Source: Escherichia coli
Lineage (GTDB): Bacteria; Pseudomonadota; Gammaproteobacteria; Enterobacterales; Enterobacteriaceae
Assembly (NCBI RefSeq): GCF_013122565.1
Contig: NZ_CP053258.1
DNA length: 64,000 bases
Strand: one strand, 5' to 3'
Both the position numbers and the translations under genes were made by a program. The notes under the pieces were generated by a model. That model was not told the DNA's origin. It did no database searches and was given only the letters and a program-made list of their open reading frames with translations. Of the stretch, positions 41,240-41,309 are shown piece by piece; the stretch's first letter is position 1; each line of letters begins with the position of its first letter.

Positions 41240-41309
41240 GACTTATATCACCTGTGTTTTGCGTGAGCCTGAGCCATACTGATATTTTTCCTCGCACAAA
41301 GGACTCGGC

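Follow-up and report, generated by a model that had tools for sequence, protein, structure and literature searches.

The rhsA element of Escherichia coli K-12 was reportedly measured at 8,249 bp in 1990 by Feulner et al., and a Rhs-free natural isolate is said to carry an unrelated 32-bp sequence in its place. A full-text literature search found no passage stating this 32-bp replacement. The interval between yibF and yibH has been catalogued as Rhs position 10, which is variably present (Jackson et al. 2009, PMC2935791). Position 10 was inferred to have arisen within E. coli after the split from a Rhs-poor pathogenic group, as a duplicate of a different Rhs locus (Jackson et al. 2009, PMC2935791). 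The C-terminus of RhsA is growth-inhibitory, and the product of yibA, encoded downstream, neutralises it (work of the Hill laboratory as described in Poole et al. 2011, PMC3150448).

The locus described here belongs to a window of 64,000 nucleotides, meaning the whole stretch of E. coli DNA that was analysed. The window is a member of the RhsA-null class, which has already been described: it has the synteny of that class, no Rhs gene, the 32-bp segment, and a spacer orthologous to that of outgroups. The vgrG-linked T6SS auxiliary effector islands are comparable in that a VgrG island occupies the yibH-yibF site in four genomes, but the window has no such island and the K-12 version is without vgrG. 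Islands of the integrase/att type are similar in being large accessory blocks with a fixed place in the chromosome, where they are either found or missing. However, the yibH-yibF site is without a tRNA or tmRNA gene, an integrase or flanking repeats, and 32 bp are replaced there rather than duplicated. The site is not an att-type island site.

The synteny mtlA-yibI-yibH-yibF-selA-selB is conserved in the window, and yibH and yibF are contiguous save for a short spacer. The genes around the site are as follows.

37288-39201, minus strand: mtlA
39738-40100, plus strand: yibI, an ORF so annotated in strain C9 and in K-12, encoding a DUF3302 membrane protein; first of the yibI-yibH pair
40103-41239, plus strand: yibH, encoding a HlyD-family membrane-fusion protein; left flank of the site, with the stop codon TGA at 41237-41239
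41240-41309: yibH-yibF spacer, 70 bp
41310-41918, plus strand: yibF, encoding a glutathione S-transferase-like protein; right flank of the site
42016-43407, plus strand: selA, downstream neighbour of yibF
43404-45248: selB

The first-pass annotation had placed 70 bp between yibH and yibF, and this figure is exact, since the last base of yibH is 41239 and the first of yibF is 41310. The gene identities hold as well: YibF gives a full-length match to the NCBIfam equivalog NF007682 (E=1e-122), YibH matches HlyD/membrane-fusion families, and SelA matches TIGR00474. The closest complete genome at the locus is that of strain C9 (98-99% identity; 98.1% over colinear parts), in which the annotated order is yibI-yibH-yibF-selA-selB. 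Colinear parts of the window are 96-98% identical to K-12, while identity at the locus is 95% with Escherichia sp. MOD1-EC7003, 90-93% with the cryptic-clade loci described below, and 87% with E. albertii. An identity of 96-97% over 24 kb had initially hinted at a non-coli Escherichia as the source of the window, a reading that these values reject.

In K-12 strain MG1655 (NC_000913.3), yibF lies at 3761347-3761955 and yibH at 3770243-3771379. K-12 had been said to carry the rhsA element between these genes, and the annotation of NC_000913.3 bears this out: far from being adjacent, the two are separated by 8,287 bp, which contain rhsA, yibA, yibJ, yibG, yibS, yibW, yibV and yibU. When the window is compared with the K-12 locus by BLAST, the left arm of homology ends at window position 41240 (K-12 3770242) and the right arm begins at 41273 (K-12 3761992), with an alignment ambiguity of only 1-2 nt at the junctions. 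Thus, window positions 41241-41272 (32 bp) stand opposite positions 3761993-3770241 of NC_000913.3 (8,249 bp). These breakpoints divide the spacer into the following parts.

41240/41241: left breakpoint; island DNA follows directly after G41240 in the K-12, VgrG-island and fimbrial/S6-island alleles
41241-41272: the 32-bp segment ACTTATATCACCTGTGTTTTGCGTGAGCCTGA, found in the empty allele only, with 8,249 bp in its place in K-12
41272/41273: right breakpoint; from 41273 on, the sequence is again homologous to K-12, VgrG-type alleles and E. albertii
41273-41309, plus strand: yibF leader, 37 bp, kept in the empty, RhsA and VgrG-type alleles and diverged in the fimbrial/S6 allele

The 70-bp junction is the unoccupied state of the site that holds the RhsA island in K-12, as had been proposed. 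The further suggestion that it might be a clean empty site stands only in part: the site is unoccupied, but K-12 does not differ from it by a simple insertion, for 32 bp and 8,249 bp are swapped with no target-site duplication. The 32-bp segment is absent from the 19-kb K-12 locus even when 6 mismatches are allowed. Conversely, RhsA, YibA, YibG and YibV (tblastn) and the 8,249-bp element (blastn) have no match at E<=1e-3 anywhere in the 64-kb window. This mapping gives the same figures, 32 and 8,249 bp, as the RhsA-null ('Rhs0') allele of Feulner, a likeness in which lengths and not letters are matched.

The K-12 element comprises rhsA, the immunity gene yibA, orphan toxin fragments and H-repeat/ISAs1 relics, and the cargo missing from the window is a polymorphic toxin locus. 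The 8,249 bp form a GC mosaic, with 33-65% per kb compared to 52.7% in the flanks. No direct repeat of at least 8 bp is found between the 200-bp ends of the element, nor is there a target-site duplication. Terminal inverted repeats are also lacking in the element, the best inverted match being 10 bp and located inside the ends. The K-12 annotation of the element includes no integrase, only H-repeat/ISAs1-like pseudogene relics.

The window differs from K-12 at several other places. Between yibL and lldP, a 5.2-kb segment (29245-34441) that is absent from the equivalent point in K-12 encodes an intact YadA-type trimeric autotransporter adhesin of 1,299 aa, with an ESPR signal, head and stalk repeats and an anchor, together with a 233-aa ORF without a Pfam match. 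At 51269-55689 there are a GH127 beta-L-arabinofuranosidase-like gene, an MFS sugar transporter gene and a 271-aa ORF that is annotated as an AraC-family regulator in the syntenic E. coli MFDS1022581; the K-12 counterpart consists only of ysaC/ysaD pseudogene relics. About 880 bp of the K-12 yiaY gene (L-threonine dehydrogenase) are missing at 45523-45527, and C9 is annotated with the same truncated yiaY. At 13608-13668, 61 bp correspond to about 1.28 kb with htrL in K-12, and htrL is absent at that position. Finally, the waaG/waaP end of the LPS core cluster (1-3409) is about 78% identical to K-12, matching only over 177-2294, whereas the adjacent waa genes (3410-13607) are 96% identical; this contrast in divergence suggests that the core-biosynthesis region may be mosaic or recombinant.

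The state of the site outside E. coli was assessed by scanning one genome per species with YibF, which gave 55 loci, and by tblastn with the window proteins and K-12 RhsA. The order mtlA-yibI-yibH-yibF-selA and the 70-bp spacer are found in four non-coli Escherichia, namely E. whittamii, E. sp. E1V33 and two cryptic-clade genomes labelled E. coli. In C9 and these four species, 66-69 of the 70 spacer positions and 28-31 of the 32 positions of the 32-bp segment are identical to the window; for the 32-bp segment, the four non-coli species by themselves give 28-30. In Citrobacter, Kluyvera, Lelliottia, Huaxiibacter and Pluralibacter, yibH and yibF are likewise adjacent, lying 61-92 bp apart (C. 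koseri: 174 bp), and a core of CACCTG, a T-run and CCTGA-GCCATACT is discernible in Citrobacter, Lelliottia and UBA7338. None of the 55 species representatives has a Rhs protein match up to 10 kb on each side of yibF. Because the 32 bp are orthologous to outgroup sequence and absent from the occupied allele, a deletion cannot have created them, and the window therefore shows the ancestral-type state. This reading agrees with the inference drawn for position 10 (Jackson et al. 2009, PMC2935791).

E. albertii is arranged differently. On a contig of the type strain NBRC 107761, a MOSC/YiiM-like gene (89-781) lies directly upstream of yibF and replaces yibH; homology to the window begins at the equivalent of 41273, and the contig ends 88 bp past the region of this gene. 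With a different gene upstream of yibF in E. albertii, it is by parsimony across the remaining taxa that the ancestral state is assigned at the base of the genus. The two genomes deposited in GenBank as "Escherichia coli", SCPM-O-B-8794 and E69, are 91-93% identical to the window across the locus and serve as representatives of separate species; they are probably mislabelled cryptic-clade Escherichia.

In E. coli itself, the yibH-yibF site is polymorphic for presence and absence of an island. The census covered 5,426 complete genomes, with a query of 1,071 bp across the empty junction. This junction is contiguous in 1,521 genomes (28%), and in most of the non-empty genomes the query breaks at the base equivalent to window 41273. 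The K-12-type right junction, consisting of yibF and the element end, is intact in 3,741 of the 5,426 genomes and the left junction in 3,709 (about 69%); genomes without the island break at query position 300/301, which is the K-12 junction, in nearly all sampled rows. The flanking genes, and the presence of the island in some E. coli and Shigella and its absence in others, are those of position 10 as surveyed earlier in 20 strains without junction sequences (Jackson et al. 2009, PMC2935791). To that survey the present comparison adds 5,426 genomes, base-level breakpoints and two further island types.

The more frequent of these two, found in 143 of the 5,426 genomes, is an island of about 10.4 kb with a HTH regulator, a chaperone-usher fimbrial operon and an S6-family autotransporter peptidase. 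The other is a VgrG island with two tssI/VgrG genes, an M35 peptidase, a GH19-type effector and others, present in 4 of 5,426. The four alleles together account for 5,409 of the 5,426 genomes. The VgrG island and the K-12 RhsA element have about 297 bp in common on the left side and 147 bp on the right, with identical junctions, and they are therefore cargo variants of one frame. Escherichia sp. MOD1-EC7003 also has the 147-bp end, with a different cargo that includes a DDE_Tnp_1-associated (H-repeat-like) ORF. The fimbrial/S6 island is unrelated to the RhsA element, and after it comes the entire spacer in a diverged copy; the yibF-proximal flank of this allele is diverged as well, at 94% over the first ~560 bp. 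The Rhs, VgrG and fimbrial/S6 cargoes all start after G41240 with a G-run, reading GGGGAGGGGG (K-12), GGGGGCGGGG and GGGGAAGGGG (fimbrial/S6). No mobility signature accounts for the breakpoint after the yibH stop that the three cargoes share.

The K-12 element closes with ~22 bp (CTGCCCTTTTTCCCATCACCAG) that can be aligned in register with the spacers of other taxa. In 17 comparisons in all, the anchored p value is 0.0014 for the E. albertii sequence, the best of the 17, and 0.006 for UBA7338, and local p values for Lelliottia, Huaxiibacter and C. amalonaticus range from 0.003 to 0.013. In E. albertii, the similarity to the element end falls in the ~20 bp just ahead of the start of homology. 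The likeness of the element end to foreign spacers is no more than suggestive. Were it real, the islands would have brought a foreign version of the spacer with them, and the true insertion point would lie directly after the yibH stop. Compared to the Feulner allele as it is described, it is new that other Escherichia have kept the 32 bp and that the last ~22 bp of the element may not be fully unrelated to what they replace.

The spacer itself may be the remnant of a transcription signal. The segment ACTTATATCACCTGTGTTTTGCGTGAGCCTGA holds CACCTG and a T-run (41248-41261); in alignments with other genera, these fall on the 3' half of an intrinsic terminator. The spacer of the metagenome-assembled genome (MAG) UBA7338 has a canonical intrinsic terminator, GGCAGG...CCUGCC followed by U6, with a whole-region z of -2.2, whereas in the E. 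coli spacer only CACCTG and TTTT are left and the RNA folds no better than shuffles (z = +0.76). The 32-bp segment thus looks like a decayed yibH terminator. With no terminator predicted in the spacer, yibF may receive readthrough from yibIH in empty-site strains; and if the spacer is a decayed terminator, the island also alters what lies upstream of yibF. On the yibF side, the GCCATACT box at 41273-41280 is conserved across genera and reads GTCATACT in the fimbrial/S6 allele; it may be the -10 region of yibF. The Shine-Dalgarno sequence AAGGA of yibF is at 41299-41303. A scan of 41000-41500 detected no strong sigma-70 consensus and no plus-strand terminator in the 70-bp gap, and Rfam gave nothing at gathering score in the whole window, nor is there a tRNA or tmRNA gene at the site.

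Taken as a whole, these observations are best explained by reading the 70-bp gap as an ancestral allele in which the yibH-yibF island site is unoccupied, and this reading is very probably right. A Rhs toxin/immunity island of 8.25 kb, present in about 69% of E. coli, would have come to lie directly after the yibH stop, displacing 32 bp of the original spacer, which the lineage of the window would have kept. If instead the gap were a scar left by the excision or deletion of an island once present, as might be imagined given that recA-dependent rearrangements are known to act on Rhs elements (Jackson et al. 2009, PMC2935791), the junction should be made solely of sequence from the occupied allele. 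It is not, and no remnant of the element is found in the window. Moreover, the 32 bp that are missing from K-12 are orthologous to the spacer of other Escherichia and of Citrobacter, so that a deletion scar is highly improbable and is effectively refuted by the outgroup alignment. Since Rhs cores are multi-copy and repeats commonly break draft assemblies, a repeated Rhs element might also have been collapsed or skipped in assembly. However, 1,521 complete genomes, and other species as well, have this junction base for base, and a collapse would not rebuild an orthologous 32-bp spacer; an artefact of this kind deserves almost no credence.

An ancestor of the strain could also have held the RhsA island and then taken the empty allele from another E. 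coli by recombination in yibH and in yibF/selA. The bimodal distribution of the allele across the species, with fixed breakpoints, is what flank-mediated exchange would give, and the diverged yibF-proximal flank of the fimbrial/S6 allele suggests that whole alleles move with their flanks. Nevertheless, there is no local jump in divergence, identity to K-12 being 98.0-98.6% in the left arm and 95.8-98.3% in the right, and such a reversion in this lineage is quite improbable. As for the islands, it is unlikely that the spacer is a dedicated and repeatedly used capture site and not the scene of one chance insertion. On its other side, each cargo has an apparent diverged foreign copy of the spacer just before the GCCATACT box. 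If the spacer were such a site, an unrecognised mechanism of site-directed or flank-carried island exchange would be at work, and the classical description of 32 bp replaced by unrelated DNA would be partly wrong.

With the gap read as the ancestral unoccupied allele, the most likely history would be a single illegitimate or flank-mediated acquisition of the island inside E. coli, after which the island may have spread or been lost by homologous recombination in the conserved flanks; this would be consistent with the K-12-type junction breakpoints. The history of acquisition is more complicated than a single cut-and-paste event, because a plain insertion does not account for the difference between the alleles, and the ~22-bp end of the element weakly resembles foreign spacers. 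The multi-allele nature of the site and the possible relic of a foreign spacer are incremental side observations on a class already known.

The source strain of the window is among the ~28% of E. coli that are without the RhsA toxin/immunity island at yibH-yibF. The empty site can serve to mark strains and gives a clean reference for the boundaries of the island. In addition, the four alleles with their shared breakpoints, the swap of Rhs and VgrG cargo and the putative decayed terminator could inform work on the exchange of toxin islands without an integrase among E. coli.
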